DNA of 64,000 bases, from positions 7,879 through 71,878 of the forward strand of contig JANTFM010000001.1 in the NCBI GenBank assembly GCA_024763475.1, written 5' to 3'. Both the position numbers and the translations under genes were made by a program. A model generated the notes under the pieces. It was not told the origin of the DNA and did not search any database. It saw only the letters and a program-made list of their open reading frames with translations. This document shows positions 23,201-50,116 of the stretch, one piece after another. Position 1 is the first letter of the stretch. Each line of letters opens with the position of its first letter. The DNA comes from Acidobacteriota bacterium. GTDB lineage: Bacteria > Acidobacteriota > Polarisedimenticolia > J045.

Positions 23201-23757
23201 ACCACAACGACCCGGGGATCAACCACGAGATCTGCGCCGAATTCCCCAAGCTCGGCTACCCGGTACTGACCCAGTCCAGCCTGCCGCTGGACGAGGACCT
23301 GCTCCTACGCCTTTTTGGCGATGAGATCGACAGGGGCGAGGTGGCGCACCCGATGGATATCGGCGAGGTGTGGAAGAACTCCTACTCGGAGAACTCCTCC
23401 CGCAAGATCTGGGCGGCCCGCTTCGTGGCCCGCCATCCCAACCTCGTCGCCCTTGAGCTGTCCAACTTCAAGTGTGGCCACGATGCGCCGATCTACAGCC
23501 TGGTGGAAGAGATCATCGGCCGCTCAGGAACCCCTTACTTCTCTTTCAAGGACATCGACGAGAACCGTCCCGCCGGATCGATCAAGATCCGCGTCGAGAC
23601 CATCGCCTACTTCCTCGAGCGCTACCACCAGAAACTCAAGCAGGAGCTTGCCACCCGGAGGGCGATCGCCCTTCACCTGGAGAAACTCCAGCGGGAGCTG
23701 CGTGGCGGGGGGCACGGGACGAACGCCAACAGCTCGGGGTTTCCTTCGCGGGGATAG
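20281..23757 (+). CDS. Acyl-CoA dehydratase activase-related protein: two tandem BadF/BadG/BcrA/BcrD-type ATPase (ASKHA) domains + C-terminal HgdB/2-hydroxyglutaryl-CoA dehydratase D-component-like domain
   Basis: Start is at MPEIASGHRRPYSEVLVIGLDVGSTTVKAVVVEP (20281, 13-nt overlap with the upstream gene); the extension from 19927 is rejected. A second activase domain begins at AYLGLDGGSTSTKAVLLDP. The C-terminal part contains the Cys-rich segment IANRACPTVCNTPEA typical of the dehydratase D-component. Confidence 0.65.
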   Translation: MPEIASGHRRPYSEVLVIGLDVGSTTVKAVVVEPGQQVVIYRNYRRHEARQTELCLEFLEQIEKELSPHAEAGFRIAVTGSGGNEIAERLGAPFVQEVSAISLAVTRLYPEVRSVVELGGQDAKIIIFKEDPATGRKKTYPSMNDKCAGGTGSVIDRISARLNVPPGDVATMRYEGVRLHPVAGKCGVFAETDINSLVKQGIPTDQLVASLFESIVQQNLSVLTRGHTLMPQVLLLGGPNHYIRGLVECWRHNIPLLWKERKVTLPAGQSIRELIVVPENAHYFAALGAAETAEEEANDDPSFGIYHGCKVLRSSLARDEGAARLRTGLSPLCQSEEEQARFEEQYRPPPWEPVRFEAGTRVEAYLGLDGGSTSTKAVLLDPRMRVLAKAYQLSRGNPIQDAKEMFASLESQILEQDCTLEILGLGTTGYAKDILKDVFRADVALVETVAHTQAGLHYFSGSDVIIDVGGQDIKLIFLKNDAVHDFKLNTQCSAGNGYFLQGTAEALGFRVEDYADIAFSARAMPEFGYGCAVFMQTDIVDFQRQGWSAEEIMAGLAAVLPKNIWLYVAKISNLPKLGRKFILQGGTQHNLAAVKAQVDFISSRFVGSGVEPEVIVHPHCGVSGAIGCALEVHRLHEEQGQETRFIGLAAAQDIGYHAIRGEETRCGFCKNKCLRTFIDLSGGERIIIATCEKGSVEELADMKRIKKGLDAAKRANPNLAEISAREVFRPVEVLQSRSGPVERRRAALPFVKGRAARRAERVERRERVRIGMPRVMNLYSMAPVFMGYFQSLGVAAENLVWSDYSSEELYRGGAKRGSIDPCFPSKLGIPHLHNLMEKKHTADRPLSHIFFPMIDTLPTVLVGTIANRACPTVCNTPEAVGAAFIKEGDLFAEQGIVFKKTFCNIDNPLLLARQLFLDWKDEIGVTEEESRFAVRQGLAALEAFEAARRAESRKIIDRLEREGGIGLVLLARPYHNDPGINHEICAEFPKLGYPVLTQSSLPLDEDLLLRLFGDEIDRGEVAHPMDIGEVWKNSYSENSSRKIWAARFVARHPNLVALELSNFKCGHDAPIYSLVEEIIGRSGTPYFSFKDIDENRPAGSIKIRVETIAYFLERYHQKLKQELATRRAIALHLEKLQRELRGGGHGTNANSSGFPSRG

Positions 23758-30462: not shown

Positions 30463-31122
30463 ATGGAACCCGAAAAGCGATTTTTCTTTCCCCGTTGGTT
30501 TAACCTCCTGCTGCCTGCTCTGGGCGTCGTGCTTGTGGGTGGACCGCTCTACCTCATCGTCGTGGTCTGGCTCGGATTCTCTCCGATGGCGGTTAGCGTC
30601 GGGTATGCTCCCGAGCAGCCCGTTCCCTATTCCCACGCCCTCCACGCGGGAGAACTGGGGATCGACTGCCTCTACTGTCACAACACGGTCGAGGAAAGCG
30701 GAAGAGCTGCGATACCTCCGTCTGCGACCTGCATGAACTGTCACGAGCGGATCAAGGCGAAGAGTGAGGCGCTTGCGCCGATCAGGGAGAGCATGGAGAC
30801 TGGCGAGCCAGTCAAGTGGGTGAGGGTGCACGACTTGCCGGACTTCGTCTACTTCAACCACAGCGCTCATGTCTCGCGAGGTGTGGGCTGCGTCGAGTGT
30901 CATGGCCGGGTGGATCGCATGGAGGTCGTCACCCAAGTCAAGCCCCTGAGCATGGGATGGTGCCTTGCTTGCCATCGCGATCCCGACGCCCGGCTTCGGC
31001 CCTTGGATCGGATCACCGATCTCGGCTGGGAGCCGGATGGAGATCGACTCGAGATCGGTCGTAAGGTACGAGAAGAAAACAACATCCAACCCTCCACGGA
31101 CTGTTCCACATGTCATCGATGA
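30463..31122 (+). CDS. actA: Alternative complex III subunit ActA, membrane-anchored pentaheme cytochrome c
   Basis: There are five CxxCH motifs (CLYCH, CMNCH, CVECH, CLACH, CSTCH). An N-terminal TM helix is present. It is first in an act operon. Confidence 0.8.
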   Translation: MEPEKRFFFPRWFNLLLPALGVVLVGGPLYLIVVVWLGFSPMAVSVGYAPEQPVPYSHALHAGELGIDCLYCHNTVEESGRAAIPPSATCMNCHERIKAKSEALAPIRESMETGEPVKWVRVHDLPDFVYFNHSAHVSRGVGCVECHGRVDRMEVVTQVKPLSMGWCLACHRDPDARLRPLDRITDLGWEPDGDRLEIGRKVREENNIQPSTDCSTCHR

Positions 31123-34100
31123 AAAAGCCTGTATCGGGAAAGGCGTTCTGGCGTTCCCTCGAGGACTACGCCGAGGCCCCGGAGTTCATGCGCTGGGCCA
31201 AGGCGGAGTTTCCTGCTCTGCTTGAGCCGATGAGTCCCCCGTCGCGCCGGTCCTTCCTGCGCCTGATGGGAGCCTCGGCGGCTCTCGCGGGGCTGGCGGC
31301 TTGCCGTTGGCCCAAGGAGACCATTCTCCCGTTCTCCCAGCGGCCGGAAGACCTCGTCCCCGGGGTTCCCCAGCGCTTCGCCACGGCCTTCGATTACGGT
31401 GGCCACGCCCAGGGACTGCTCGTCACGAGCTACGACGGCCGCCCGATCAAGATCGAGGGCAACCCGGAGCATCCCCTGTCGCGGGGGGCCAGCAACTCCT
31501 TCGCCCAGGCGTCGGTGCTGAGCCTCTACGACCCGGATCGCTCACGGGTCCCCTATTCCGGGGGCAAGAAGAGTTCTTGGGCGGACTTCGATGCCGCGTT
31601 CGGCGCGCAGACAACGGCTCTTGCCGCGTCCGGTGGAGCGGGTTTCGCCGTGCTGGCCGAGGCGAGTTCGTCGCCCAGCCGCGCGCGCTTGCAGGCTGAG
31701 ATAGAGTCCGCCTGGCCCAACGCCCGCTGGTTCGAGTACGAAGCGATCTCCCGGGACAACGAGCGGGAGGGTACGCGGCTCGCCTTCGGGAAGCCCCTGC
31801 GGCCCCAGTACGACTTCTCCAAAGCCGAGCTTGCCGTCTGCCTCGATGCCGACCTCCTGGGAGAGCATCCGGCGTCCCTCGCCCATGCCCGGGGCTTCGC
31901 GGTGTCCCGGCGCCGGATCGACGAGGGCCGACTCGGTCGCCTCTACGCGATCGAGAGCTGCTATTCGATCACCGGAGCCGCAGCCGACGAGCGTTTCCCG
32001 ATGCCCAGCGGCCGGATTCCCGCACTCCTCGTTGCCATCGCTCAAGGCCTCGAGGCGGCTGGAGTTGCCCTGCCCTCGGGTGTGCTCCGCGCCGCCGTGT
32101 CCGCATTTCCGCCTGGCGAGAGCCTGCCCCTCGTGGCCACGATCATCGAGGATCTGCTGCGCCATCGCGGCCACGGCTTCGTGGCCGTTGGTGCCCAGCA
32201 CCTGGCGGAAGCCCACGCTCTGGCGTTCGCCATCAACGATGCCCTCGCGAACACGGGCCATACGGTCTCTTACCTTCCCTGTCCTGATCCGGAACGGGTG
32301 TCTCACTCGACCGCGATTGCCAGCCTGGCAAGGAAGATCGAGGCGGGAGAGCTCACCACGCTCCTCGTTCTCGGTGCGAACCCGGTCTACAACGCCCCTG
32401 CGGACTTCGATTTCGGTGCTTTGCTGGCCAAGGTCGGCCAGACGATTCATCTCGGGCAGTACCGCGATGAGACCGCCGAGAAGTGCCTCTGGCACCTCCC
32501 CGAAGCGCACTATCTCGAATCCTGGGGTGATGCCCGCTCCTGGGATGGAAGCGTCAGCGTCGTCCAGCCGCTGATCGAGCCCTTGCACGGATCGCGCAGC
32601 GCCCTCGAGATCCTCGCCGGTGTTCTCGGTCGCCAGCCGGCGGACGGACATGGGATCGTCCGAGAGACGATCACCGGACTCGCTGGCGACAAGGGAGACA
32701 AGGCGTGGCGCCGCACCTTGCATGACGGTCTGCTTGCCGGCAGTGCGCCTGCGCCCGTCCATCCCCGGATCGATGGCTCATCGGTCGCCGCGTCCCTGGC
32801 TTCGGCGAAGCCCAAGGCTGCTGGTGATCTGGAACTCGTCTTCACCACGGCTCCGGACGTCTACGACGGACGCTTCGCGAACAACGCCTGGTTACAGGAG
32901 ACGCCCGATCCGCTGACGAAACTCACCTGGGACAACGCACTGCTCGTGGGACCCGCCACGGCGGACAAGCTGGGTGTGCGCCATGGCGAGCTGGCGAAGG
33001 TGGAGGCTGGCGGCCGCTCGATCGAGGCCCCGGTGTTCATCGCTCCGGGCCAGGCCCTCGGGTCGATTGCCCTCGGCCTCGGTTACGGCCGGACCGCGGC
33101 CGGCAGGGTCGGCAGCGGCGTGGGTATCAGCGCCTACCCCCTGAGAACTCTCGCGGACGCCGGTTGGTCCAGCGGCATCACGGTGACAGGCACCGGACAG
33201 GTCTTCAAGTTGGCGACGACCCAGGATCATTTCGCGATCGATGTGGGGGGCCGCGAGGAGACGGAGCGCCGCCGACCCGAGCTCGTGCGCGAGGCGAATC
33301 TCGAGGAGTTCAAGCGGGTCCCCGACTTCGTTCGCCACCGCAGCCACGACATAGAGCTCTTTTCCCTCTGGGAGGAGTTCACCTACGAAGGTCACAGCTG
33401 GGGCATGTCGATCGACCTGAACACCTGCATCGGCTGCAACTACTGCGCGGTGGCCTGTCAAGCCGAGAACAATGTCCCGGTCGTCGGCAAGGAGCAGGTG
33501 TACAACGGCCGCGAGATGGCCTGGCTGCGCGTGGATCGCTACTACGGGGGGGATCCTGAGGATGCAAGCATCGCGTTCCAGCCCCTCGCCTGTCAGCAGT
33601 GCGAGATGGCGCCCTGCGAAGAGGTCTGCCCGGCATCAGCGACCGTTCATGACGACGAAGGCCTCAATACGATGGTCTACAACCGCTGTATCGGGACGCG
33701 CTACTGTTCCAACAACTGCCCTTACAAGGTGCGTCGTTTCAACTTCTTCAACTACCACAAGAATCTGACGGAACTCGAGTCGCTGGGGATGAATCCCGGT
33801 GTCTCCGTTCGATCGCGTGGTGTGATGGAAAAGTGTACCTACTGCACGCAGCGCATCGCCCAGGTAAAGATCCTGGCCAAGAACGAGGGGCGTCCCATCG
33901 AGGACGGCGAGATCACGCCCGCCTGCGCCCAGGCCTGTCCGACGCAGGCCATCACCTTCGGCGACCTCAACGATGAGAAGAGTCGCGTCCGCGAGCTGCA
34001 CCAGGACAAGCGGGCCTACTCGCTCCTGGGCGAACTGAACATCAAGCCGCGCACGAAATATCTGGGGCGGATAAAGAACCCATCCTCCATGGGACACACG

Positions 34101-34127
34101 GAGCACAGCTCCGAGGAGCATCACTGA
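31110..34127 (+). CDS. actB: Alternative complex III subunit ActB (fused B1 molybdopterin-oxidoreductase-like + B2 4Fe-4S ferredoxin-like), Tat signal
   Basis: The twin-arginine signal is SRRSFLRLMGASAALAGLAA. There are four Cys clusters: CIGCNYCAVACQAEN, CQQCEMAPCEEVCP, CIGTRYCSNNCPY and CTYCTQRI...CAQACP. 1005 aa, the expected ActB size. Confidence 0.85.
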   Translation: MSSMKKPVSGKAFWRSLEDYAEAPEFMRWAKAEFPALLEPMSPPSRRSFLRLMGASAALAGLAACRWPKETILPFSQRPEDLVPGVPQRFATAFDYGGHAQGLLVTSYDGRPIKIEGNPEHPLSRGASNSFAQASVLSLYDPDRSRVPYSGGKKSSWADFDAAFGAQTTALAASGGAGFAVLAEASSSPSRARLQAEIESAWPNARWFEYEAISRDNEREGTRLAFGKPLRPQYDFSKAELAVCLDADLLGEHPASLAHARGFAVSRRRIDEGRLGRLYAIESCYSITGAAADERFPMPSGRIPALLVAIAQGLEAAGVALPSGVLRAAVSAFPPGESLPLVATIIEDLLRHRGHGFVAVGAQHLAEAHALAFAINDALANTGHTVSYLPCPDPERVSHSTAIASLARKIEAGELTTLLVLGANPVYNAPADFDFGALLAKVGQTIHLGQYRDETAEKCLWHLPEAHYLESWGDARSWDGSVSVVQPLIEPLHGSRSALEILAGVLGRQPADGHGIVRETITGLAGDKGDKAWRRTLHDGLLAGSAPAPVHPRIDGSSVAASLASAKPKAAGDLELVFTTAPDVYDGRFANNAWLQETPDPLTKLTWDNALLVGPATADKLGVRHGELAKVEAGGRSIEAPVFIAPGQALGSIALGLGYGRTAAGRVGSGVGISAYPLRTLADAGWSSGITVTGTGQVFKLATTQDHFAIDVGGREETERRRPELVREANLEEFKRVPDFVRHRSHDIELFSLWEEFTYEGHSWGMSIDLNTCIGCNYCAVACQAENNVPVVGKEQVYNGREMAWLRVDRYYGGDPEDASIAFQPLACQQCEMAPCEEVCPASATVHDDEGLNTMVYNRCIGTRYCSNNCPYKVRRFNFFNYHKNLTELESLGMNPGVSVRSRGVMEKCTYCTQRIAQVKILAKNEGRPIEDGEITPACAQACPTQAITFGDLNDEKSRVRELHQDKRAYSLLGELNIKPRTKYLGRIKNPSSMGHTEHSSEEHH

Positions 34128-34130
34128 TCC

Positions 34131-35597
34131 ATGAGCACAGGACTATCTGAAAACCTGAGCCAGGATCCACGGCAGCGGCCCACGCTGGTGCTGGGGGGCA
34201 AGGGCTTCACCGAGGTGACGGACACGGTCTGTGCCGTGTCCGAGCGGCGCAAGTGGCCGGCGATCTGGTATATCGCTTTCGCCTGTTCCCTGGTTCTCCT
34301 GGGCGTGCTTGGCGCCTGCCTGACCTACCTGATCAGCACGGGTATCGGGGTGTGGGGCAACAACATGCCCGCTGCCTGGGGATTCCCGATCGTCAACTTC
34401 GTGTTCTGGGTCGGCATCGGACACGCAGGTACGCTGATCTCGGCGGTGCTCTTCCTCTTTCGCCAGAAATGGCGGACGAGTATCAACCGCTCCGCGGAGG
34501 CGATGACGATCTTCGCAGTGGCCTGTGCCGGCATCTTCCCGGCGGTGCATGTCGGGAGGGTCTGGCTGGCCTACTGGCTCTTTCCCATTCCCAACCAAAT
34601 GTCCATGTGGCCGAATTTCCGTTCGCCGCTGCTCTGGGACGTATTCGCCGTGAGCACCTACGCCACCGTGTCCAGCATGTTCTGGTACATGGGTATGATC
34701 CCGGATCTGGCGACCCTTCGAGACAGGGCGACTGGCAAGGCGAAGCAGTTCTTCTACGGCCTCTTTTCCCTGGGTTGGTCCGGGTCCAATCGCCACTGGC
34801 TTCGTTTCGAGCGGGCCTACTTGCTGCTTGCGGCGCTCGCGACCCCGCTGGTGCTCAGCGTGCACTCGATCGTGTCCTTCGACTTCGCGGTCTCGATCCT
34901 GCCGGGCTGGCACACGACGATCTTTCCGCCCTACTTCGTCGCTGGGGCGATCTTCAGCGGGTTCGGGATGGTGATGACGATTCTCATTCCCTGCCGTTCG
35001 GCCTTCGGGCTGCAAGATCTGATCACGACGCGCCACGTAGAGAACATGGCCAAGGTGATCCTCGTGACCGGCTCGATGGTGGGCTACTCCTATACGATGG
35101 AGTTCTTCATCGCCTGGTACAGCGGCAACCTGGTTGAGCAGTTCGCCTTCGTCAACCGCTCCTTCGGACCCTACGCTTGGGCCTACTGGACCATGTTCAG
35201 CTGCAACGCCTTCATTCCTCAGCTCTTCTGGTTCAAGAAGGTCCGCCAGACGATGCTTCTCGCCTGGATTGTCAGCATTCTCGTCAACGTGGGGATGTGG
35301 TTCGAGCGATTCGTGATCGTCGTCACCTCGCTGACGCGGGACTACCTCCCCTCGAGTTGGGGCATGTTTCGGCCGACCTCTATCGACTTTCTGACCTTCC
35401 TCGGCAGCTTCGGTTTGTTCTTCACGCTCTTCCTGCTCTTCGTTCGTTTCCTGCCGATGGTCGCGATGGCCGAGGTGCGGAGCGTGATGCCGCAGGCCCA
35501 TGGCATCGTCGGTGAAGGACACCGTCCCTTCGGTGACTACTGGCCCGACTCTGTTCATCCGGAGCGGCAGCGAAAGCCGTCGCCGGAGGAAGAGTGA
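34131..35597 (+). CDS. actC: Alternative complex III subunit ActC (NrfD/PsrC-like polytopic quinol-interacting membrane subunit)
   Basis: 488 aa with ~10 TM helices. NrfD-family motifs include [25 protein letters not shown]. Position in operon also fits. Confidence 0.8.
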
Positions 35598-36142
35598 TGA
35601 ACCACGACACGGCGCCCCTGTGGGGCATGATGGCCGAATTCGACAACGTCAGCGATACCCTCGCCGCCGCGGAGAAGACCCGCGACGCCGGCTTCAAGCA
35701 CTGGGACACGCACACTCCCTTCCCAGTGCACGGGCTGTGTGATGCGATGGGCATGCGGGATACGCGTCTGCCATGGGTCGTGCTCACGGCAGGAATCACC
35801 GGGGCCCTCTTCGGCCTGGCGCTGCAATACTTCACCAATGCCGTGGACTATCCGTTCGTGATCAGCGGCAAGCCGTTGTTCAGCCTGCCTGCGAATATTC
35901 CGGTGGTCTTCGAGTGCACGATCCTCTTCGCCGCGCTGACGGCCTTCAAGGCCATGCTCGTGGCGAATCGTCTGCCGCAGCATCATCGGCCACTCTTCAA
36001 GAAGGAGCGCTTCCGGCGGGCCACGCAGGACCGCTTCTTCATCGTGATCGAGGCGGCGGATCCCAAGTTTGATGCGGACAGGACGCGCGCCTTTCTCGAG
36101 TCGCTTGGCGGGCTCTCCGTTGAGGAGGTAGAGGATCGATGA
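35594..36142 (+). CDS. actD: Alternative complex III subunit ActD (DUF3341 membrane protein)
   Basis: 182 aa with a single TM segment; ATGA-coupled to actC. Size and position fit ActD. Confidence 0.65.
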
Positions 36143-36792
36143 GGGTACCGAGGGGAGTCATCTACCTGCTCATTGTGGCGGTTGCGCTGACGCTGCTACC
36201 GCTGGCAGTGATCGCACTGGCGCGCACCTCGACGTCGTCCAAGCCGCGGATTCACATCGTTCCCGACATGGATAGCCAGGAGTCCTTCAAGGCGCAACAG
36301 GGTTCCACGCTCTTCAGCGACGGCCGTGCGGCGCGCCTGGCGCCGGCCGGAACGGTCGCCCGAGGCCAGCTCAAAGAGGACGACCACTACTATCGGGGCA
36401 AGATCGCAGACGCGTATGCGACCGAGTTCCCCAAGCAGGTTCAGGTCACGGAAGAACTCCTCCTGCGGGGCAAGAACCGATTCCAGGTATTCTGCGCCCC
36501 TTGCCACGGTCGTGCCGGCTACGGAGACGGTATGGTGGCCCGGCATGCGGACGCACTGGCCGAGGGCACCTGGACCCAGCCAGCGGACTTCCACACGGAC
36601 GCCATCCGGCAGCGGCCGGTCGGCGAGATCTTTGATATCTTGACCAACGGGGTACGCAACATGCCGGCCCATGGTCGCCAGATCAAAGTACATGATCGCT
36701 GGGCGATCGTGGCTTACGCCAAGGCGCTGCAACTCAGCCAGGAGGTCGACGTTGAATCCCTCCCGGCCGAGTTCCGCCAAGGCCTGCGCTAA
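36139..36792 (+). CDS. actE: Alternative complex III subunit ActE, monoheme cytochrome c
   Basis: There is a single CAPCH heme-binding motif and an N-terminal signal/lipobox-like segment. ATGA-coupled to actD. Confidence 0.75.
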   Translation: MRVPRGVIYLLIVAVALTLLPLAVIALARTSTSSKPRIHIVPDMDSQESFKAQQGSTLFSDGRAARLAPAGTVARGQLKEDDHYYRGKIADAYATEFPKQVQVTEELLLRGKNRFQVFCAPCHGRAGYGDGMVARHADALAEGTWTQPADFHTDAIRQRPVGEIFDILTNGVRNMPAHGRQIKVHDRWAIVAYAKALQLSQEVDVESLPAEFRQGLR

Positions 36793-36798
36793 GCGAGG

Positions 36799-38022
36799 TT
36801 GGGGATGCATACCCATCTGATCGATATCACGAAGGAAAAACGCTTTCTGGGTTCTCTTGGGCAGCGGTTGACTCTCGGGGGTGGTGTGGCCGGTATCGTG
36901 GGCCTGGCCGTGTCCTTCGGCCTGGCATCGACCTCTGAAGACGGTATTCATCGTCTGTGGTGGTCCTACCTCCACAACTGGACCTTCTTCCTGACGATTG
37001 CTCTCGGCGCACTCTTCTTCGTGCTGGTCGAGCACCTGGCCAAGGCGGGTTGGAGCGTTGTTCTAAGGAGGCTCTCCGAGGGCGTCTCGATGACGCTCGT
37101 CTTGCTGGCGATCCTCTTCGTGCCGCTGATTTTCGGCCTGCATGACCTGTATCACTGGCTGCACGCGGATCTCGTGGCCCAGGACCATGTGCTACAGCAC
37201 AAGGCGTCCTACCTGAACCAGACCTTCTTCCTGGTCCGCGTCGCGGTCTACTTCCTCTTCTGGATCGGGGCGGCGTTCCTGATGCACCGCAACTCGGTCA
37301 AGCAGGACCAGAGCGGCGATCACTTGCTGACGGGGAAGATGGAAGCCCTCAGCGCGCCTTTCATGATGATCTTTGCACTGACGACGACCTTCGCATCCTT
37401 CGACCTGCTGATGTCCCTCGATCCGCACTGGTTCTCGACGATCTTTGGCGTCTATTTCTTTGCCGGGTCCTTCATGTCTTTCCTGGCCTTCCTGTCCGTG
37501 ATCATCGTCGGCTTGCAGCGAAGTGGCCGGTTGACGGGTGCCATCACCGACCAGCACCTGCATGATGTCGGAAAGTTCCTGTTCGCGATGCTCGTCTTCT
37601 GGGCTTACATCGCGTTCTCACAGTACCTGCTGATCTGGTATGGCAACCTTCCAGAAGAGACCGGATGGTACCTGCGGCGGCAGACGGGGACTTGGTCCAG
37701 CCTCGGGATCGTGATGATCTTCGGGCACTTCCTGATCCCCTTTCTGTTCTTGCTCTCGCGGCACATCAAGCGGCGGCCTCTGCTGCTCTCCCTGGGCGCG
37801 TTGTGGCTGCTGGTGATGCACTGGCTCGATCTTTATTGGTTGATCATGCCCGAGTATGACCACGCTCTCACCGCGATCCCGTTCAGCCTGCTAGACCTGA
37901 GTTGCCTGGTGGGTATCGGGGGCTTCTTCATCGCCGCCTGGGCGTGGTTCCTCAGGCGTTGCTCGTTGATCGCCGAGAAAGACCCGCGTCTCGCGGAATC
38001 GCTCACCTTTGAGAACGCGTGA
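36799..38022 (+). CDS. actF: Alternative complex III subunit ActF (second NrfD-like membrane subunit)
   Basis: 407 aa polytopic membrane protein paralogous to ActC (WYGNLPEETGWY). Operon position fits. Confidence 0.75.
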   Translation: MGMHTHLIDITKEKRFLGSLGQRLTLGGGVAGIVGLAVSFGLASTSEDGIHRLWWSYLHNWTFFLTIALGALFFVLVEHLAKAGWSVVLRRLSEGVSMTLVLLAILFVPLIFGLHDLYHWLHADLVAQDHVLQHKASYLNQTFFLVRVAVYFLFWIGAAFLMHRNSVKQDQSGDHLLTGKMEALSAPFMMIFALTTTFASFDLLMSLDPHWFSTIFGVYFFAGSFMSFLAFLSVIIVGLQRSGRLTGAITDQHLHDVGKFLFAMLVFWAYIAFSQYLLIWYGNLPEETGWYLRRQTGTWSSLGIVMIFGHFLIPFLFLLSRHIKRRPLLLSLGALWLLVMHWLDLYWLIMPEYDHALTAIPFSLLDLSCLVGIGGFFIAAWAWFLRRCSLIAEKDPRLAESLTFENA

Positions 38023-38044
38023 CAAGCGGAGAGGACACACGCAG

Positions 38045-38365
38045 ATGGAACAGGAATCTGGCAAGGGCAAGCCCGATACAGGCTACAGGGGCATGACCGT
38101 GGTTCTCGTGGTCGTACTGACACTCGTGCTGGCGACTGCGCTATCGCTCTCCGGCATCGCCTACCTGAACCACCTCTCCTCCCTGCAGCTCAAGGAGCAG
38201 CTCGTCGAGGTCAAGAACCAGGCGTTGGAGGAGATGGTGACCGCTCAGGAGCGGGCTCTTTCTCGCCGGGAGTGGGTTGATCAGGAGAAGGGTAAGGCGC
38301 GCATACCCATCGAGGATGCCATGAAGGTCATGGCGCGCGGCTTCGCTGAGAAGGACGGACGCTAA
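38045..38365 (+). CDS. Small single-TM membrane protein, probable ActG-like accessory subunit
   Basis: The ATG at 38045 is preceded by GGAGAGG. It has a TM helix (TVVLVVVLTLVLATALSLSGIAYL) followed by a charged coiled region. It is located between actF and the cox-like genes. Start is uncertain; the alternative is 38093. Confidence 0.45.
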   Translation: MEQESGKGKPDTGYRGMTVVLVVVLTLVLATALSLSGIAYLNHLSSLQLKEQLVEVKNQALEEMVTAQERALSRREWVDQEKGKARIPIEDAMKVMARGFAEKDGR

Positions 38366-38367
38366 TC

Positions 38368-39363
38368 ATGAATCCTGCACCCTCGTGGATGCCCCCCCAG
38401 GCCGCGGATATCGCGAAGAGCGTGGATTGGAGCTTCGAGGTCACGCTGTTTATCGCACTCTTCCTTGCGGTGACGGTGGTCGGTCTGCTTGCGCTCTTTG
38501 TCTCGACCAGCCGTCCCCAGGACAAGCAGTCGGCTGGGCGTGACGGTGCGGGCTGGGTGGTCCAGGCTTTCTGGGTCCTGGCCCCGCTGTTGATTTGCGG
38601 CTATCTGTTCACGCTGGGTCTTCCGGGCTATGTGTCCAATACGCGCCAGAGAAGCGAATCGTACACGGTGGTCGCTGCGGTCCAGCCCTGGACGGCGGAC
38701 GAGTCCAAGGAGCGGTCCGAGGGTGAGCTTCCGATCGCCGATTGGTCGTTTACCTACCCCAACGGTTTCGTCGCTCGGGACCTGCGCTTGCCAGCGCATA
38801 AGAAGATTCATCTCGTGGTTCAGGGCAGCCAAGGCGCTCAGACACTCTACGCGCCGGCCCTGCGCATCGAGGGCAAGGCCGCCTTCGGAGAAAAAGAGGA
38901 TTTTTGGTTCGAGACCTCGGATCCGGGAAGCTACCCGCTTTTCAACACGGTCTATAGCGGGGGCGAGTTCCTGGGCATGGGTGCCGAACTCATGATCAGC
39001 GACGCGGCGGAGTTCGACACCTGGCTCCAGGAAGTCTCGAACGATCTCTCGGGGCTTCCGCCCGCCGAGGCCGGCCAGGTCGTCTTCCAGCGCAACGGAT
39101 GTGTGGCTTGCCATTCGATCAACGGAACGCCGCTGGTCGGGCCGAGCTTCCAGGGATTGTGGGGCCGGTCCGAGACGCTTGCCGATGGAAGCAGCGTCGT
39201 CGTGGATGCGGACTATGTCGCGGAGTCGATCTTCAATCCGACAGCTAAAGTGGTCAAGGGCTTCCAGCCCGTGATGCCCCCGTTCGCCGGGCGCATTTCC
39301 GACGAGCACGTCGGCTTCCTCATCGAGTACATGAAGTCCCTGAACGGGGAGGGTGCCAAATGA
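38368..39363 (+). CDS. Heme-copper oxidase subunit II-like protein lacking the CuA ligands, with a C-terminal monoheme cytochrome c domain (caa3-type architecture, degenerate)
   Basis: Two N-terminal TM helices plus a cupredoxin-like periplasmic domain are typical of CoxB. The CuA motif H-x34-CxExCGxxHxxM is absent: the corresponding region reads LYAPALRIEGKAAFGEKEDFWFETSDPGSYPLFNTVYSGGEFLGMGAELM with no Cys or His. The C-terminal heme c site is CVACH, with a downstream Met. Confidence 0.6.
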   Translation: MNPAPSWMPPQAADIAKSVDWSFEVTLFIALFLAVTVVGLLALFVSTSRPQDKQSAGRDGAGWVVQAFWVLAPLLICGYLFTLGLPGYVSNTRQRSESYTVVAAVQPWTADESKERSEGELPIADWSFTYPNGFVARDLRLPAHKKIHLVVQGSQGAQTLYAPALRIEGKAAFGEKEDFWFETSDPGSYPLFNTVYSGGEFLGMGAELMISDAAEFDTWLQEVSNDLSGLPPAEAGQVVFQRNGCVACHSINGTPLVGPSFQGLWGRSETLADGSSVVVDADYVAESIFNPTAKVVKGFQPVMPPFAGRISDEHVGFLIEYMKSLNGEGAK

Positions 39364-40928
39364 GCGCCACGCATGCAGCTGCTGCCCCATCCGGCACCCA
39401 GGGGAGCTGGCTCTTCAGCCTGGATCACCGCCGCATCGGCGTCCTCTACCTGTGGGTCTCCTGTTTCGCAATCCTCGTGGCCGCCTTCCTCGGCTGGTTG
39501 ACGGCCGTGGAGACGGCCTATCCAGGGCAGACCTTCGTTGGTGAGCAGGACCTCCACCTGCTCGGTGCCGGCCGGGGCCTCTTCCTTGTGTTTTTCTTCC
39601 TGCTGCCGGCCATCCCGGCTGGTCTCGGCAATTTCATTCTGCCGCTGCAGGTCGGCGCAGAGAATGTCTTCCATCCGTCGATGAATCGCCTGGCGCTTCA
39701 TACCTTCCTGCTGGGCCTTCTCGCCGCCGTGGTGGCGGCGTTACTCGGTGGAGCGGATGCGTGGTGGGCCCCGCTGACGCCCTATGACTTGGGGCCCGGT
39801 GCGGTCGTGACCTGGTCGATGGCCGCCGCCGCACTCGTCGTATTCTCGATGATGATGACCAGTCTCAATTTCATCGGGACGGTTCATCTGCGCCGGGCTC
39901 CCGGTATGAGCCTGTCCCGGCTCCCGGTGAGTGTCTGGGCGATCTACATCTACTCCTGGGTTCACATCGTGGCTGCGCCGGCGGCGACTCTCGCCTATGG
40001 CGCGATGTTGATGAGTCGCGGCAAGGAGATGCCCTTCACCAATCCCGAGACGGGTTTCGCCTTCTCGCAGATCGAGATGCTCTTCTGGTTCTTCGCGGCT
40101 CCCGTGCTCCTGGCCACGATCCTGCCCGTGATCGGCGTCGTGACGGAGGTCCTTTCGGCGCAGACCCGCCGACGGCCTGCGGCGCCAGGACTCCTGGTCT
40201 ACGCGATGGCCGCAATCGGCGTCATGTCCTTCATGGTGTGGGGACGGGAACTTTTCTCGATCGGCGCGCATGAACGACTGGCGATCGTCGGCAGTGTTGC
40301 GTCCTTCCTGGTCTACGCCCTCGTCTTGACGATCATCTTCGCCTGGATCGGCACCCTGTCCCAGCGTGGCAGTGGTTTCCAAGTGGATGCTGCCTTGCTC
40401 TACGCGGTCTTCGCGATCGCTTTCCTCGCGATCGGCGCTCTTGCCGGTTGTTTTACGGCCTCCATGGCCCTCGGCCCTTACCTCGGCCCGTCGCTCTTTG
40501 CCTCCGGCCGCTTCGAACTCCTCGTGGTGAGCCCGGTGGTCATGGGGCTTCTGGCGGGGCTGCACTACTGGTGGCCCAAGCTCAGGGGGTGCAGCTGCCG
40601 GGGCACGGCCGCGAGCCTGGGAGCTTGGGCGGTCTTCCTGGGATTGCTTCTCTCCGGACTGGGCAAGCTGGCGCTGGGCATCATGGGTGTTCCTGCGCGA
40701 GCGTATTCCGCAGGTGGGCCTCACCTGGCCGCTTACCTTGCGGAGCTGGGGGCGACCCTCGTGCTCTGCGGTCTCTTCGTAGTGGTGACGGTGCTTGCGC
40801 GCGCCGAGAAGGGAAGCGACGAGGGGATCGAGGGCGCGGGCCTCGAATGGCAGGCCGGCTCCTTCAACGACGCCGAGAACTTCTCGACAGTTCCGGATGG
40901 CCACATCGACCCCTACGACTTCCGCTGA
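39360..40928 (+). CDS. Heme-copper oxidase subunit I-like protein with all canonical CuB/heme a3/heme a His ligands substituted (pseudo-oxidase subunit I)
   Basis: The N-terminus WLFSLDHRRIGVLYL matches COX1 (WLFSTNHKDIGTLY), and HYWWPK matches HYWFPK. However FWFFGHPEVY is replaced by FWFFAAPVLL, WAHHMF by WGRELF, and the HDTYYVVAHFHY region by ASGRFELLVVSP. 522 aa with ~12 TM helices. Confidence 0.6.
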   Translation: MSATHAAAAPSGTQGSWLFSLDHRRIGVLYLWVSCFAILVAAFLGWLTAVETAYPGQTFVGEQDLHLLGAGRGLFLVFFFLLPAIPAGLGNFILPLQVGAENVFHPSMNRLALHTFLLGLLAAVVAALLGGADAWWAPLTPYDLGPGAVVTWSMAAAALVVFSMMMTSLNFIGTVHLRRAPGMSLSRLPVSVWAIYIYSWVHIVAAPAATLAYGAMLMSRGKEMPFTNPETGFAFSQIEMLFWFFAAPVLLATILPVIGVVTEVLSAQTRRRPAAPGLLVYAMAAIGVMSFMVWGRELFSIGAHERLAIVGSVASFLVYALVLTIIFAWIGTLSQRGSGFQVDAALLYAVFAIAFLAIGALAGCFTASMALGPYLGPSLFASGRFELLVVSPVVMGLLAGLHYWWPKLRGCSCRGTAASLGAWAVFLGLLLSGLGKLALGIMGVPARAYSAGGPHLAAYLAELGATLVLCGLFVVVTVLARAEKGSDEGIEGAGLEWQAGSFNDAENFSTVPDGHIDPYDFR

Positions 40929-40934
40929 GCCCGA

Positions 40935-41482
40935 TGGTTGACCGGGAGACATCGAATCCCGTTCGGGCGGCCATCTCCCACTGGACGGAGCCTGTCTTCG
41001 GGCTCGCGGGTCTCGCGCTTGTCGCGGTGGTGCTGCTATTCATCGTCAGAGGTTGGGTCCCCAGGGAGCGGCCTCATCCGGGGTCCCCAGAGATCGGAAG
41101 ACTCGCCGTCCTGCCCTTCGATGAGATCGGTGACGAAGCTGCCGCCGCCCCAGACAGCGGGTCAATCCTGGAGGCGCTGACCAGCGAGTTCTCCCACTAC
41201 CTGGCCGTGATCCCGTCCGAGCAGAGCCAGCTCCAGGGGCGGAGCAAAAAGACCCTGCGGGAGATTGCGGAAGACCTCGGCGCCGACTCGCTCCTGGTGG
41301 GTAGCATCATCGCCGGAGACAGCGGCACCCGCGTGCGCGCACGCCTCGTGCGAGCCGAGCAGAGCCGCGAGCTGTTTGCCGTCCGTGTGCTCGGAGAGGA
41401 TCCTGCGCGCCTCGCGGCGCAAATGCGGACGACGATTCTTGGGGAAGATGCGCCGCGAAGGACGGCTGAAGAGACGCGGTGA
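40935..41482 (+). CDS. Hypothetical membrane-anchored protein (N-terminal TM helix; periplasmic/cytoplasmic alpha/beta domain)
   Basis: ATG at 40935. A TM segment (FGLAGLALVAVVLLFIV) is followed by a ~140-aa soluble region. No family recognised. Confidence 0.4.
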
Positions 41483-41567: not shown

Positions 41568-42227
41568 ATGCAGTCGCCGCAAGAGGTCCTGAAGCGCCTC
41601 CAGGCAGGAAATCGTCGCTTCGTTTCGGAGCGTCCTACTTGCGCCATCCTCAGCACTGAGGCGCGCCGCCGCGAGCTACTGGAGGGCCAGGAGCCCTGCG
41701 CCATCATCCTCGGTTGTTCCGATTCGCGGGTTCCGCCGGAGATCGTCTTCGATCAGGGCCTGGGCGACCTCTTCGTCATTCGTGTCGCGGGGAACACCGC
41801 CGGCCCATCTCAAGTCAGTAGCATCGAGTTCGCCGTGAAGAAGCTCGGTGCGCGGCTCGTCGTGGTTCTGGGTCACTCGAGCTGTGGTGCCGTGCTCGCG
41901 GCCCTGGAGGATCTCGAACTCCCGCCTCGGCACCGGTCTCCGAGCCTCGCGCCGATCGTTGCTTCGTTCGAAGACTCGGTGAAATCCTTGCCAGAGACGG
42001 AGCGTCTGCAGGACTCGGCCACGCTGGTGCGCTACGCCGTTCGGGAGAATATCCGGAGGGTAGTGGATCAGCTGCGAAGCGACTTTGGGGTTTTCGGGCG
42101 ACAGGTCCGGCGAGACGAACTCCTCATCGTCGGAGCGGAGTATTCGCTCGAGACCGGATGCGTAGATTTCTTCGATGATCCGGTGCAGCCGACCGGAACC
42201 GAAGTCGCTCGTCCCCAGGATCCATGA
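41568..42227 (+). CDS. Beta-class carbonic anhydrase
   Basis: Zn-ligand motifs are CSDSRV and HSSCGAV, with the N-terminal LKRLQAGNRRF motif. Start is at MQSPQEV (41568); the alternative ATG is at 41532. Confidence 0.85.
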   Translation: MQSPQEVLKRLQAGNRRFVSERPTCAILSTEARRRELLEGQEPCAIILGCSDSRVPPEIVFDQGLGDLFVIRVAGNTAGPSQVSSIEFAVKKLGARLVVVLGHSSCGAVLAALEDLELPPRHRSPSLAPIVASFEDSVKSLPETERLQDSATLVRYAVRENIRRVVDQLRSDFGVFGRQVRRDELLIVGAEYSLETGCVDFFDDPVQPTGTEVARPQDP

Positions 42228-45413: not shown

Positions 45414-46397
45414 CTAGCTTCGCGCGGGAACGAGCGAGCGGGCGGCACCCTTGGCGCGCGCTTCGAGTTCGTGAATGAAGAGGGAGAGCTTCTCGCGGGA
45501 GGTGGCGTGGCCGTTCTCCTCGAGTTGCTCGCGAAGCCACTGCACATCGTCCCATTGCCGCTGATCGAGCGCTTCGAGGAGGCGCCGGTACATGCCGAGA
45601 GCCTTGCGCCGGGCGACGGGCAGGGGCAACGAGATGCCCTCCTTCTCGGCCGCCTGGGCACAGAAGTCGTAGGAGAGCCAGTCGTACTTCATCGTTCGCC
45701 GGATGTCTGCTCTCGAGGTGAGGGATCCCGCGTGAATCCGGCGAATGGCCAGGGGTTCTGCGATACAGGAAACGGCGTAGAGCATCGTCATCCGCAGCCA
45801 GAGTTCGAAGTCCTGCGCCTTGCGCATCTCGACGTTAAACAGGCCGACATGCCGCAGCGCCTTCCTTCGTGCGACGACCGTCGAGGGCGGCATCGTGAAG
45901 GACTCCATGTAGAGTTCCTCGAACACCCGCTGGTTCGAGCGCGTGGGGACAACTCGCGGCGGGCCGATCGCCTGCCACTCGAAGTCGGTGTCCTGGGATC
46001 CGCTGTAGCAGAGGCCGAGTTCGGGGTACTTCTCGAACTCCGGGACCTGCCGCTCGAGCTTTTCGGGAAGCCACTTGTCGTCCGCATCGAGGAAAGCGAC
46101 CAGCGGTGAGCCAGCGGCCTCGATTCCCGTGTTGCGGGCAATGTTTCCTCCCCGGTTTTCGGGGAAGAGGATCGGCTGGATCGAATCGCCCATCGAGAGG
46201 AGGAGATCCGCCGTACCATCGCTCGAGCCGTCATCAACCACGAAGATCGTTGTCGGGGGCAGCGTCTGCGCCAGAACAGATTCCACCGCGTCTCCGACAC
46301 AGTCAGCGGCGTTGTAGGCAGGTATAACTACGTCGTAACACAAGCGCTGGGACACAGACCACCTCGCGAGTTCCGTACAAACTCCAAGGCCCAACAT
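45414..46397 (-). CDS. Glycosyltransferase family 2
   Basis: Motifs YDVVIPAYNAADCVGDAVESVLAQT, FVVDDGSSDGT, and the DXD FLDADDKW. Confidence 0.75.
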   Translation of the reverse strand: MLGLGVCTELARWSVSQRLCYDVVIPAYNAADCVGDAVESVLAQTLPPTTIFVVDDGSSDGTADLLLSMGDSIQPILFPENRGGNIARNTGIEAAGSPLVAFLDADDKWLPEKLERQVPEFEKYPELGLCYSGSQDTDFEWQAIGPPRVVPTRSNQRVFEELYMESFTMPPSTVVARRKALRHVGLFNVEMRKAQDFELWLRMTMLYAVSCIAEPLAIRRIHAGSLTSRADIRRTMKYDWLSYDFCAQAAEKEGISLPLPVARRKALGMYRRLLEALDQRQWDDVQWLREQLEENGHATSREKLSLFIHELEARAKGAARSLVPARS

Positions 46398-46454
46398 AGC
46401 CGTCTCTTCCGAAAGAATCGAGTCCCTATCGATCGCGGCCGGAGGACCTGCGGG

Positions 46455-47378
46455 CTACTTGGGTTGGAGGCGCAGATCATCGAGAAAGAGCACGCGCTCC
46501 TGGGTCAATTCCTTGAGAAGGAAGACCACCGTCTTGATTCGTGATGTGTCGATCTTCCGATGTTGTCCCCCGACAACGAGATTCTCGAGTTCGATATGGA
46601 GGGTGTTGGGCCCGGGTGCAAGATCTACGCGCTTCAGGAATCGCTCCTTGGGGTCCCGGTAGGCGAGTTCGTCCGTGATCTTCACGAAGAAGGGTAGTGG
46701 ATCCTCTCCGGCGACGAAGACCTGCAGGTCGAGCCGGTGATAGGCGCTCCAGTCGTGGGGGGGATCGCTGAAGACGACTGCCGGCCGGGTGCCCGGCGAG
46801 AACCTGCACTTGAGCGAGTAACTTCCGGAATGCGGGTGTTCCGTTGCCAGGCGAAGGGCACAGCCGCCGCTGCCCTGCCAGGGCAGCAGGTCTCCCGCGC
46901 CCTCGAAGTCGGCGAGGACGGGAAGGCGCAGGGCTCGCGCGTGTTCTTCACCAAAAACCCAGAGCGTTCGGGCCACGGGCCAGGCGCTCAGAAGCACGAG
47001 TGCGAGAACGACGAGAACGATTCGCCTCGGTGTGGGGTCGTCCAGGGCAGCCATGAGCGCGAGGGCCGCAGCGATGCCAGCCAAGTCGACAGCGAGGTCT
47101 CCAAGGGAAGCTTCTCCCGTTCCCAGGAGCGCCTGCAGGCCCTCGATGGCGACACAGATCGCGAGGGTCAAAGCGGCTGCGGGCACGAGATGGCGCAGGA
47201 GGCGGGTGAGAAGCCAGCAAAGGAGTGCGGCCAGGGGCAAGTGTGCGAGGTCCATCAACGCGGAGGCCCGAGGGACGCCGTCCAGCTGCGGCGTCGGGAG
47301 CAGGGGGATCGCGGCCAGCCCAAGGAGGGCCGCCGAGAGCAGCAACCGGCTACTTCGCGTGGACGGCGCCTGGTCCAT
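46455..47378 (-). CDS. VanZ-like membrane protein with a C-terminal extracytoplasmic beta-rich domain
   Basis: VanZ-like core AIEGLQALLGTGEASLGDLAVDLAGIAAALAL, ~4 TM helices, and a C-terminal 170-aa soluble domain. Confidence 0.45.
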   Translation of the reverse strand: MDQAPSTRSSRLLLSAALLGLAAIPLLPTPQLDGVPRASALMDLAHLPLAALLCWLLTRLLRHLVPAAALTLAICVAIEGLQALLGTGEASLGDLAVDLAGIAAALALMAALDDPTPRRIVLVVLALVLLSAWPVARTLWVFGEEHARALRLPVLADFEGAGDLLPWQGSGGCALRLATEHPHSGSYSLKCRFSPGTRPAVVFSDPPHDWSAYHRLDLQVFVAGEDPLPFFVKITDELAYRDPKERFLKRVDLAPGPNTLHIELENLVVGGQHRKIDTSRIKTVVFLLKELTQERVLFLDDLRLQPK

Positions 47379-48411
47379 AGGTCCTGACCTTGCCTCGCTT
47401 CAGAAACGACGAGAGGAAGCCAACCCCAAGCCCGGCGTGAATCGTGGGGAAAATCGCCAGGTAGCGCAGGAGATGCGCGAAGGATGTGCCCCGTGCCAAC
47501 GCGAAGGAGGCGATGACAACGAGCAGGGCGTAAAAGGAGACGCATCCCGCTGCGAAGAGGAACAGCGGCCAGGACAGGAACGGCAGGAAAGGCAGCGCGA
47601 CGAGCCCCAGGACGAAGAGCGGAGGGATCAGCTGCCCAACGCTGATCTCCGAGGGGTGCTGACGCAGGTACTTGTAACGGCCGTAGCCGTAGCGGTGCAT
47701 TTGCCTGAAGAGGCCGCGCAAGCTGTCCCGCGCGTAGTAGAGCACGGTCAGCGAGGGGCTGGTGAAGCAGGTCATTCCGGCTTCGTCGACGCGCGTGTTG
47801 AACTCGAGATCTTCACCGGCGTCGAACTCCTCGTTGACGTAACCAATCTCCTCGAAGACCTCTTTGCGGTACGCCGCCCCCATGCTTGCCGCGGGAGCGA
47901 AACCCTCGAAGTCGCTGTGAATGAACGAGCTCGGCGAATGACCCAGGCGAGAAGCGCGGGCGTTGGAGATCGCCTCGGACATCGATCCGGGATGCGTGGC
48001 AAGCAGCGGCTGTGGCCGGCCGAGGCAGGCCGCCTTCGACACGAAGAAGCAGCGCGCGATACTCGCGAGAAGCTGATCATCCGGCAGGCGAACATGTCCG
48101 TCGATGACAACGGATACCTCTCCCCGGGCCGCCTTGAAGCCCACGTTGCGTCCGACGGAAGATCGGCGCCCCGGGTTGTCGATCAGGCGTACGCGCGGAT
48201 CTTCCTCCGAGAGGCGTCGGACGATCTCACGCGTGGAATCATCACTCATCCCGTCACAGACCAGGATCTCGAGGAGACTCCCGGGGTAGTCCTGGTCGAG
48301 GATCTGGCGAATCGTCCCCTCGAGGAAGCGCTCCTCGTTGCGTACGGGCATCACGACCGTGATGAACGGCTGCGCGTCAAGTGGTGGCCAGCGATCCTCT
48401 CGAGCGGTCAT
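47350..48411 (-). CDS. Glycosyltransferase family 2 with a C-terminal membrane domain
   Basis: Motifs ITVVMPVRNEERFLEGTIRQILDQDYP, the DXD CDGMSDDST, and a C-terminal ~4 TM helices. Confidence 0.75.
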   Translation of the reverse strand: MTAREDRWPPLDAQPFITVVMPVRNEERFLEGTIRQILDQDYPGSLLEILVCDGMSDDSTREIVRRLSEEDPRVRLIDNPGRRSSVGRNVGFKAARGEVSVVIDGHVRLPDDQLLASIARCFFVSKAACLGRPQPLLATHPGSMSEAISNARASRLGHSPSSFIHSDFEGFAPAASMGAAYRKEVFEEIGYVNEEFDAGEDLEFNTRVDEAGMTCFTSPSLTVLYYARDSLRGLFRQMHRYGYGRYKYLRQHPSEISVGQLIPPLFVLGLVALPFLPFLSWPLFLFAAGCVSFYALLVVIASFALARGTSFAHLLRYLAIFPTIHAGLGVGFLSSFLKRGKVRTYGPGAVHAK

Positions 48412-49529: not shown

Positions 49530-50116
49530 GCGGGCGTCTCCTGGCCACGGTCCTTGATCTTCTTTGCGGGGTTTCCCGCCGCGATGGCCATCTCGCCAAT
49601 GGGCTTGACGACAACGGAGCCAGCGCCGATGACCGAGGCTCGCCCGACGTCCGCCATGATGACACTGCCTTCTCCGATCCAGGACTGCGCGCCGATCGAG
49701 ACGCACTCGAAGACGCCTTCTTGCTGGTTGATGGCCTCGTCGGTACCGGTTCCGTGCTGCCGGCGGCCCGAGAGGATGCTCACCCGCGAAGCGAGAAGCG
49801 TGTCGTCGCCTAGAATGCAGGTGCCAAGAATGCAGTAGAGCCCGACCCAAACCCGCGCGCCGATCCGCGCCGTCGGCTGCGTGATTACCGAGCCGAAGTG
49901 CATATCGAAGTCCCAGGGGCACTCGGGGAGGACGAGGCAGTAGAAGGCCCGCCGGATGTAGCGCCCGAAGTATCCCGGAATCAACGCCATACATTGTGCA
50001 GCGGTCCCGTAGGGAATCTCCGTGCCGAGAGCCAGGCCGAGGCGGGCGTAGATCACCAGTGGGGCCGCGAGGATGGCTGCGAGACCGTTGAGCAAGCCCT
50101 TGATCAGCGTCTTCAT
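49526..50116 (-). CDS. Hexapeptide-repeat (left-handed beta-helix) sugar O-acetyltransferase, WcaF/WcaB-like
   Basis: The C-terminal half has imperfect hexapeptide repeats (IGAQSWIGEGSVIMADVGRASVIGAGSVVV). It also has an N-terminal TM helix. Confidence 0.65.
   Translation of the reverse strand: MKTLIKGLLNGLAAILAAPLVIYARLGLALGTEIPYGTAAQCMALIPGYFGRYIRRAFYCLVLPECPWDFDMHFGSVITQPTARIGARVWVGLYCILGTCILGDDTLLASRVSILSGRRQHGTGTDEAINQQEGVFECVSIGAQSWIGEGSVIMADVGRASVIGAGSVVVKPIGEMAIAAGNPAKKIKDRGQETPA

Follow-up and report, generated by a model that had tools for sequence, protein, structure and literature searches.

What does alternative complex III (ACIII) keep at its side when the oxidase encoded next to it has lost its chemistry? 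The question is raised by the locus at 30463-40928 (+ strand) of a 64,000-nucleotide stretch of contig JANTFM010000001.1, from an Acidobacteriota bacterium (assembly GCA_024763475.1). This stretch is referred to here as the window, and coordinates are positions within it unless another locus is named. An intact actABCDEF(G) operon is followed, on the same strand and with translational coupling, by two genes in the oxidase position, whose products (COX2-like and COX1-like) resemble subunits II and I of a haem-copper oxidase (HCO). The subunit I homolog retains none of the metal ligands of an oxidase, the subunit II homolog keeps a haem c site, and selection maintains both. The lineage is seen in two metagenomic strains only, the window and L002, assembled independently from two sequencing runs. 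The two genes are:

38368..39363, + strand: COX2-like, 331 aa, with two transmembrane (TM) helices, a cupredoxin-like domain lacking CuA and, at the C terminus, a cytochrome c domain
39360..40928, + strand: COX1-like, 522 aa, a 12-TM haem-copper-oxidase fold without haem or Cu ligands, matching PF00115 at 2.7e-59

The start of the COX1-like gene overlaps the stop of the COX2-like gene by 4 nt. The COX1-like protein matches yeast COX1 at 1e-51 (HMMER) and scores 263.8 bits against TIGR02891, the CtaD/CoxA model, below the cutoff of 670.75. AlphaFold2 returns a full 12-helix fold (pLDDT 89.4, pTM 0.92), which Foldseek aligns to A-family subunit I with a TM score of about 0.9; the input alignment consisted mostly of canonical homologues, so the model shows compatibility with the oxidase fold and is not proof of it. 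Judged by profile, alignment and predicted fold, descent from HCO subunit I is unambiguous. A preliminary description of the window had taken the two genes for homologs of CoxB and CoxA, and the PF00115 match, the yeast and Thermus alignments and the structural comparison bear this out.

Ligand positions (bovine numbering) were read from HMMER alignments to yeast and Thermus subunit I and from three independent MAFFT alignments, all of which agree. None of the six invariant His is retained: H61 is replaced by R72, H240 by A247, H290 by R296, H291 by E297, H376 by R384, and H378 by E386. The cross-link Tyr (Y244) is L251, the proton-channel residues E242, D91, and K319 are V249, N102, and I325, and most haem-propionate contacts are also replaced (R438 by A446, with R439 retained). 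Further haem-contact residues, the equivalents of R38, D364, Y371, and Y440, are lost as well. In 40 canonical ACIII-linked COX1 sequences, 172 alignment columns show conservation of 95% or more, and the COX1-like protein retains only 81 of them. Four of the six His positions now hold charged residues, not hydrophobic fillers.

All remaining His residues of the protein were checked as possible shifted ligands. H66, six residues before R72 and kept in both strains, falls opposite bovine N55, where helix II ends on the P side, and lacks a partner ligand; the shifted-ligand explanation was rejected. The profile search and alignments that the preliminary description had proposed as a check thus agree on the substitutions. 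Its claim that the CuB, haem a3, and second haem a ligands were missing holds with one correction: all six His are replaced, and both haem a ligands are gone, not the second alone. Among the 120 best matches of a 5.8-billion-protein search, and among the 150 best 50%-identity representatives of 1.84 billion proteins, the COX1-like protein is the only sequence lacking all six His. Nor does it resemble HCOs of the nitric oxide reductase (NOR) type, which have both haems and a His3(+Glu/Asp/Asn) metal site, as against no His at any of the six positions here. It is predicted to be unable to reduce O2.

The COX2-like protein scores 48.9 bits against TIGR02866 (cutoff 147.7). Five of its six CuA ligands are lost, H161, C196, E198, C200, and H204 being replaced by T159 (Q158 in one of two alignments), N193, V195, S197, and F201; M204 alone is retained. 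The C-terminal cytochrome c domain is intact, with CVACH at 245-249 (C245, C248, H249) and M303, and matches the cytochrome c domain of Rhodothermus marinus caa3 subunit II (PDB entry 1w2l) at 3e-23. This domain is the part of the protein closest to characterised enzymes. The initial statement that every metal-centre ligand had been lost is therefore true of haem a, haem a3, CuB, and five of six CuA ligands, and overstates the loss by one haem, since the haem c site is intact. Where the cupredoxin-like domain begins, both strains carry a 17-residue acidic insertion (TADESKERSEGELPIAD, residues 109-125, window 38692-38742) that no other aligned COX2 sequence has.

The pair is under strong purifying selection. 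Ratios of nonsynonymous to synonymous substitution (dN/dS) were calculated by the Nei-Gojobori method between the window and L002 (95% amino acid identity, other sequencing run), at a dS of about 0.33. The ratio is 0.079 for the COX1-like gene, the lowest among six genes of the contig, and 0.105 for the COX2-like gene as a whole, with 0.10 in its TM and cupredoxin-like region and 0.12 in its cytochrome c domain. Both genes lie below lgt (0.135) and carbonic anhydrase (0.32).

The origin of the pair is best seen against its canonical relatives. The 80 closest COX1 loci in GTDB species genomes are all of canonical A2-type, with the pattern HHYHHHH (the six His and the cross-link Tyr in bovine order), and 77 of them have Ala at E242 with D91 and K319 present. 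Almost all lie directly 3' of actABCDEF, with SCO1 before COX2 and with COX3 and COX4 after COX1; this ACIII-linked layout with SCO and COX2-COX1-COX3-COX4 has been published as ‘COX operon type a-I’ (PMC6431628, PMC4013037). SCO1, COX3, and COX4 are present in nearly all 80 of these loci and in L086, the nearest ACIII operon to that of the window. None of the three was found by tblastn in the window; they were lost during decay of the oxidase.

L086 belongs to a hydrothermal-vent metagenome-assembled genome (MAG) labelled Acidobacteria, and has the canonical layout and a canonical A2-type oxidase. Its Act subunits are 59-80% identical to those of the window (the ActG-like protein apart, at 32%), as compared with 33% for COX1, 31% for the N-terminal part of COX2, and 48% for the COX2 cytochrome c domain. 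The oxidase genes thus diverged far faster than ACIII after loss of function. Canonical COX1 sequences share 61-68% mutual identity; no ACIII-linked COX1 found is more diverged than the COX1-like protein, which shares 30-34% identity with the rest, and a full HMMER scan of 1.84 billion cluster representatives yielded no relative above 36%. On balance, we favour the view that the COX1-like/COX2-like pair is an exapted remnant of the A2-type caa3 oxidase normally encoded after the act genes, held in its new state by later purifying selection.

The genes upstream of the pair are those of a complete ACIII:

30463..31122, + strand: ActA, pentahaem cytochrome c with an N-terminal TM helix; five CxxCH motifs, Pfam Cytochrome_C7/c3
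31110..34127, + strand: ActB, exported by the twin-arginine translocation (Tat) route, molybdopterin-like and 4Fe-4S; TIGR04519 Tat signal at residues 11-50, Fer4 at 764-878
34131..35597, + strand: ActC, NrfD-like quinol-binding membrane subunit; PF03916 at 1e-20, 80% identity to L086 ActC
35594..36142, + strand: ActD; PF11821 at 5.8e-67
36139..36792, + strand: ActE, monohaem cytochrome c; one CxxCH at residue 119, PF13442 match
36799..38022, + strand: ActF, second NrfD-like membrane subunit; R. marinus ActF (6f0k_F) at 5.4e-99
38045..38365, + strand: ActG-like, 106 aa, single TM; position matching the 95-120 aa genes found after ActF in all related loci

With the pair, these make nine closely packed genes with intergenic gaps of -13 to +22 nt, and start and stop codons overlap at several junctions. 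A scan for promoters and terminators across the operon gave signals no better than chance. ActA is 69% identical to its L086 counterpart. ActB also matches QrcC/QrcB-like proteins and has at least 120 homologues at 50-66% identity; the best ACIII matches are MAGs labelled Acidobacteria, at 58%. ActF has no Pfam match and is a distant paralogue of ActC (23% identity, E=9e-11). The ActG-like gene has a dN/dS of 0.19 between the two strains. All features of ACIII are found together, namely the cytochromes ActA and ActE, the Tat-exported iron-sulfur ActB, the paired NrfD-like ActC and ActF, and ActD, and the motif counts and the Pfam, TIGR, and 6f0k_F matches accord with the intact operon first described.

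The preliminary description had further called for a survey of ACIII operons followed by ligand-less COX1 homologues, and ACIII operons followed by decayed COX1 homologues do occur in several lineages. Among the 150 best COX1 representatives, 70 are canonical, 27 retain both haem ligand sets with an incomplete CuB site, 23 retain the low-spin haem pair and have lost the a3 His, eight have two or fewer of the six His, three fall elsewhere, and 19 are fragments. At least one invariant His is missing in 61 of the 131 full-length nearest 50%-identity representatives, and the commonest decay pattern retains the low-spin haem pair only. These 61 suggest an extensive radiation of decayed A2-type subunit I proteins, as yet uncharacterised. 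Wherever the context of a near-cofactor-less COX1 could be read, it was linked to ACIII, and partly decayed forms are also found in this position. Patterns are given in the same order as above:

L004/L005: RYFQEHQ, near-cofactor-less, ACIII-linked
L091/L092: RQFQHYE, near-cofactor-less, ACIII-linked
L094: QNLHHWD, near-cofactor-less, ACIII-linked; COX2-like without CuA Cys
L093: HRFGHSH, partly decayed, ACIII-linked; Fibrobacteria MTB MAG
L003: HHYTHHH, partly decayed, ACIII-linked
L098: HHGVHQH, partly decayed, ACIII-linked; a3 His, one CuB His and Tyr lost

Decay was placed on trees of the undecayed Act subunits (ActB+C+F and ActD+E+F). On these trees the window has canonical L086 as its sister (bootstrap 100% and 92%), and the decayed L093 has L018, a canonical locus also from Fibrobacteria (100%); L091 and L094 are placed elsewhere. 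Decayed COX1 sequences share 29-40% identity with one another, no higher than with canonical COX1. Taken together, the Act trees and the lack of any closer relationship among decayed COX1 sequences indicate that decay happened several times independently. A neighbour-joining tree of COX1 itself lumps the decayed sequences on long branches; the monophyly it implies was not trusted, and the Act trees were used in its place. Replacement of H61 by Arg (in three lineages) and of H378 by Glu, Asp, or Gln recurs among the near-cofactor-less lineages, and suggests a common structural solution that may tie helices II and X together without haem. These comparisons place the window at the far end of a series of ACIII-linked oxidase decay that recurs across lineages; it is not unique in kind.

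Several of these loci differ in their surroundings. At L094, SCO1 still lies between ActG and COX2-like (8235-9071), so the gene for the Cu chaperone can outlast the Cu sites. At L004 (71-15504 of a Logan SRR31272973 contig), a fused ActDE, ActF, and ActG precede the near-cofactor-less COX1-like gene, which is followed by a weak COX3 and then by crtI/crtB/crtD/crtC, pucC, and a Mg-chelatase-like gene; judged by its gene content, the decayed oxidase looks to adjoin a photosynthesis gene cluster. L089 (475-6374), a partly decayed case, carries two COX1 paralogues (551 aa, and 528 aa with the pattern HHMSHQH) flanking an 804-aa FG-GAP protein, and a sigma-54 activator comes next. The 4.7 kb upstream at L089 contain no ACIII, hence not all decayed homologues are ACIII-linked.

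What, then, might a stripped oxidase contribute to ACIII? The haem c ligands (CxxCH and Met) are kept in all seven decayed COX2-like proteins with known context, in each of which CuA is incomplete, and in all ~25 proteins without CuA Cys among the 120 nearest COX2 homologues. One family places the pair next to a plausible electron acceptor. In the Planctomycetes MAG GCA_016714045.1 (L098, 2132-20799; also L103, L100, and L101), ActA-B-C-DE-F-G is followed by a CuA-less COX2-like protein with cytochrome c and a COX1-like protein, and these in turn by DsbD_2, ccoI, ccoS, fused ccoNO, ccoP, and ccoG. The decayed pair between ACIII and the cbb3 cluster is conserved in this family at about 50-80% identity (60-87% for COX2-like), and the gene order is common to the MAG and independent metagenome contigs. 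The NCBI name for this COX2-like protein is merely ‘c-type cytochrome’.

In R. marinus, ACIII and caa3 form a supercomplex, and the cytochrome c domain of caa3 subunit II receives electrons straight from ActE (PMC5928083). The pair in the window most likely still joins ACIII in the way that the oxidase does. Electrons would pass from quinol, through ActC and the first iron-sulfur cluster of ActB, to the ActA haems and on to the ActE haem. From there they would reach haem c of the COX2-like protein, which could deliver them to a diffusible or separate terminal acceptor, be it a different oxidase or an anaerobic reductase with its genes elsewhere. In this scheme the COX1-like protein would act as a cofactor-free 12-helix anchor and docking body for this tethered cytochrome c. 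R72 and E386, together with R296, E297, and R384, occupy the sites of the former His-Fe-His and His-Cu ties of helices II, VII, and X, and may form salt bridges in their place. That the exapted remnant anchors a tethered cytochrome c at the electron exit of ACIII is, in our judgement, somewhat more probable than not.

An oxidase-like and non-reducing partner of ACIII, as had been suggested from the outset, is supported by the loss of ligands, haem contacts, and accessory genes and by purifying selection. Among the three roles offered for it, retention of haem c in all decayed lineages examined, and the position of the pair beside cbb3 in one family, favour a scaffold combined with a receptor of ActE/ActA electrons; proton or ion conduction finds no support, the D- and K-channel residues being gone.

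Several observations weigh against an anchored electron relay. In the Flavobacterium johnsoniae supercomplex, the one case in which an ACIII-oxidase interface is known at high resolution, the contact runs through oxidase subunit III (PMC8361435), and subunit III (COX3) is missing from the locus. The evidence for association with ACIII consists of operon linkage and translational coupling, from which the physical contact is presumed. No cbb3, bd, nir, nos, or other oxidase genes that could supply the acceptor were found within the window. The CuA-less N-terminal part of the COX2-like protein and the COX1-like protein are constrained as strongly as the cytochrome c domain; a pure anchor would not obviously need such constraint, and the COX1-like protein may therefore do more than anchor. 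Finally, R72 is Gln in the second strain, so the R72-E386 pair is not strictly required.

That constraint across both whole proteins, beyond the cytochrome c domain, might instead reflect a purely structural or assembly role, in which ACIII needs the oxidase body in order to fold or stay stable, electron flow through haem c is not obligatory, and ActE reduces soluble carriers directly. R. marinus ACIII alone does reduce soluble cytochrome c and HiPIP (PMC5928083). We nevertheless regard this as unlikely: the ligands of CuA, CuB, haem a, and haem a3 have been lost in varying combinations, but those of haem c are kept in every decayed lineage examined, and no part of the pair is better conserved than the cytochrome c domain. 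A less probable alternative is that the former haem/Cu cavity has acquired a new function, R296, E297, R384, E386, and R/Q72 forming a polar path or binding site such as an ACIII-coupled ion or proton conduit or a pocket for some new ligand. The dN/dS of the COX1-like gene (0.079, the lowest measured on the contig), charged residues at four of six His positions, and the recurrence of the H61 and H378 substitutions would all fit, but the canonical channel residues are lost (N102, I325, V249), no sequence signature of a known transporter is present, and the recurrent Arg/Glu pattern is equally explained by structural salt bridges.

The remaining explanations carry far less weight. HCO variants with altered active sites are real enzymes (e.g., eNOR, gNOR, and sNOR; PMC11214002), and with H66 conserved in both strains one might imagine a non-canonical oxidase or NO reductase that is still catalytic, its haems or metals held by non-His or shifted His ligands. 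All described variants keep their haem ligands, however (PMC11214002), while here both low-spin haem His, the a3 His, three CuB His, R438, D364, CuA, and SCO1 are all gone and H66 lies at the P-side end of helix II opposite bovine N55, which makes catalysis very improbable. A decaying relic, that is, a pseudogene in progress, or an assembly artefact is scarcely credible. Extreme divergence (30-34% identity to other ACIII-linked COX1) and occurrence in only two metagenomic strains might point that way, but frames of 522 and 331 codons are intact despite about 67% divergence, the same genes recur in independent assemblies from two sequencing runs with dN/dS of 0.08-0.10, translational coupling to the act genes is preserved, and the predicted fold is confident. 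Low dN/dS and recovery in the second run led us to reject this explanation.

The preferred reading, in which an exapted oxidase remnant serves to anchor a tethered cytochrome c, can be set beside systems already described. The ACIII-caa3 cluster and supercomplex, HCOs with altered sites (the NOR families), and subunit II without CuA (CyoA, gNOR) are all well known. The window shares with the R. marinus ACIII-caa3 system the order actABCDEF(G)-coxB-coxA and a subunit II with a C-terminal cytochrome c domain, but lacks the haem a, haem a3, and CuB ligands, five of six CuA ligands, SCO1, COX3, and COX4, and its COX1 is 33% identical to the canonical protein. The F. johnsoniae ACIII-aa3 complex (PDB entry 6btm) likewise couples ACIII to an A-family oxidase body with a tethered cytochrome c bridging the two, as is proposed for the window. 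There, however, the bridging cytochrome c is on ActA, contact is made via subunit III, and the oxidase is active; in the window it is subunit II that bears the cytochrome c, there is no subunit III, and subunit I is without redox cofactor ligands.

A cupredoxin-fold subunit II without CuA ligands is also found in Escherichia coli CyoA (cytochrome bo3), the next-best PDB match to the COX2-like N-terminal domain at about 3e-5, and in gNOR. Those proteins have a subunit I partner with all its metals and receive electrons from quinol, whereas the COX2-like protein retains a haem c domain and partners a cofactor-free subunit I. Cytochrome cy and CcoP of Rhodobacter capsulatus bc1-cbb3 supercomplexes (PDB entries 6xkw-6xkz) offer a functional analogy, an anchored haem c leading from a quinol:cytochrome c oxidoreductase to an oxidase. 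The Planctomycetes clusters of ACIII, pseudo-oxidase, and cbb3 fit this picture, and the window has no cbb3 genes nearby; the anchor is a single helix there as compared with a 14-helix oxidase remnant here, and the two do not share ancestry. Cytochrome bc1 offers a case of a catalytic ancestor kept as a structural subunit after loss of its catalytic residues, in its peptidase-like core proteins. They belong to another family and complex, and in the window an entire redox enzyme core has been emptied. The NOR-type HCOs (cNOR, qNOR, eNOR, bNOR, sNOR, gNOR, and nNOR) belong to the same superfamily as the COX1-like protein and, like it, have no cross-linked Tyr and do not reduce O2, but all keep both haems and a metal-binding His set (PMC11214002), of which the COX1-like protein has none.

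No description of an HCO core without cofactor ligands, or of its recurrent linkage to ACIII, was found in the open-access literature (subscription journals were not covered), in keeping with the first impression that the arrangement had not been reported; Pfam and NCBIfam hold no dedicated family for the pair. It is tempting to speculate, although we would put this at somewhat below an even chance, that stripped HCO cores are a recurrent, selected type of ACIII subunit. They would form a previously unrecognised class of ‘pseudo-oxidases’ that arose independently in several phyla and rerouted electrons through a tethered cytochrome c to cbb3 oxidases, anaerobic reductases, and possibly photosynthetic reaction centres, with the organism of the window as the end-point at which the redox core of subunit I has been replaced by buried salt bridges.

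Clusters of ACIII, COX1, and COX2 are routinely read as aerobic respiration in metabolic reconstructions, which would be wrong here and in many metagenomic relatives, and the pair is of practical weight for genome annotation as well as of interest to bioenergetics. Loss of CuB, of haem a3, and of all cofactors along the decay series amounts to a natural experiment on the non-catalytic role of the oxidase body for ACIII, and suggests that the association was valuable enough to outlast oxidase chemistry. The COX1-like protein is also a case of a 12-helix haem protein fold stabilised without haem. The proposed wiring, a plausible mechanism that we infer from gene content and conservation, provides a testable route from ACIII to cbb3-type or anaerobic terminal enzymes.

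One further gene follows the pair closely:

40934..41482, + strand: P182, 182-aa single-TM protein without a Pfam or NCBIfam match; gene called in both strains, dN/dS 0.22

P182 begins 5 nt downstream of the COX1-like stop codon, and none of the other ACIII loci examined encodes a homologue of it; whether it is part of the ACIII/pseudo-oxidase system is uncertain. A beta-carbonic anhydrase (41568-42227) follows P182 in both strains, and a convergent lgt lies after it. Elsewhere in the window are a 2389-aa secreted-type giant surface protein with PKD, He_PIG, Big_9, and DUF2341 domains (8170-15339) and, on the - strand, an exopolysaccharide cluster of GT2, GT4, GNVR chain-length, and Poly_export genes (45414-55554); both appear ordinary and unrelated to the pseudo-oxidase pair. 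A BcrAD/BadFG-type ATPase fused to DUF2229 (20290-23757), a CoA-enzyme activase of the type typical of oxygen-sensitive radical enzymes, and a DUF438-hemerythrin-PAS protein (1128-2378, - strand), possibly a sensor of O2, NO, or iron, are weak hints of a low-oxygen lifestyle.

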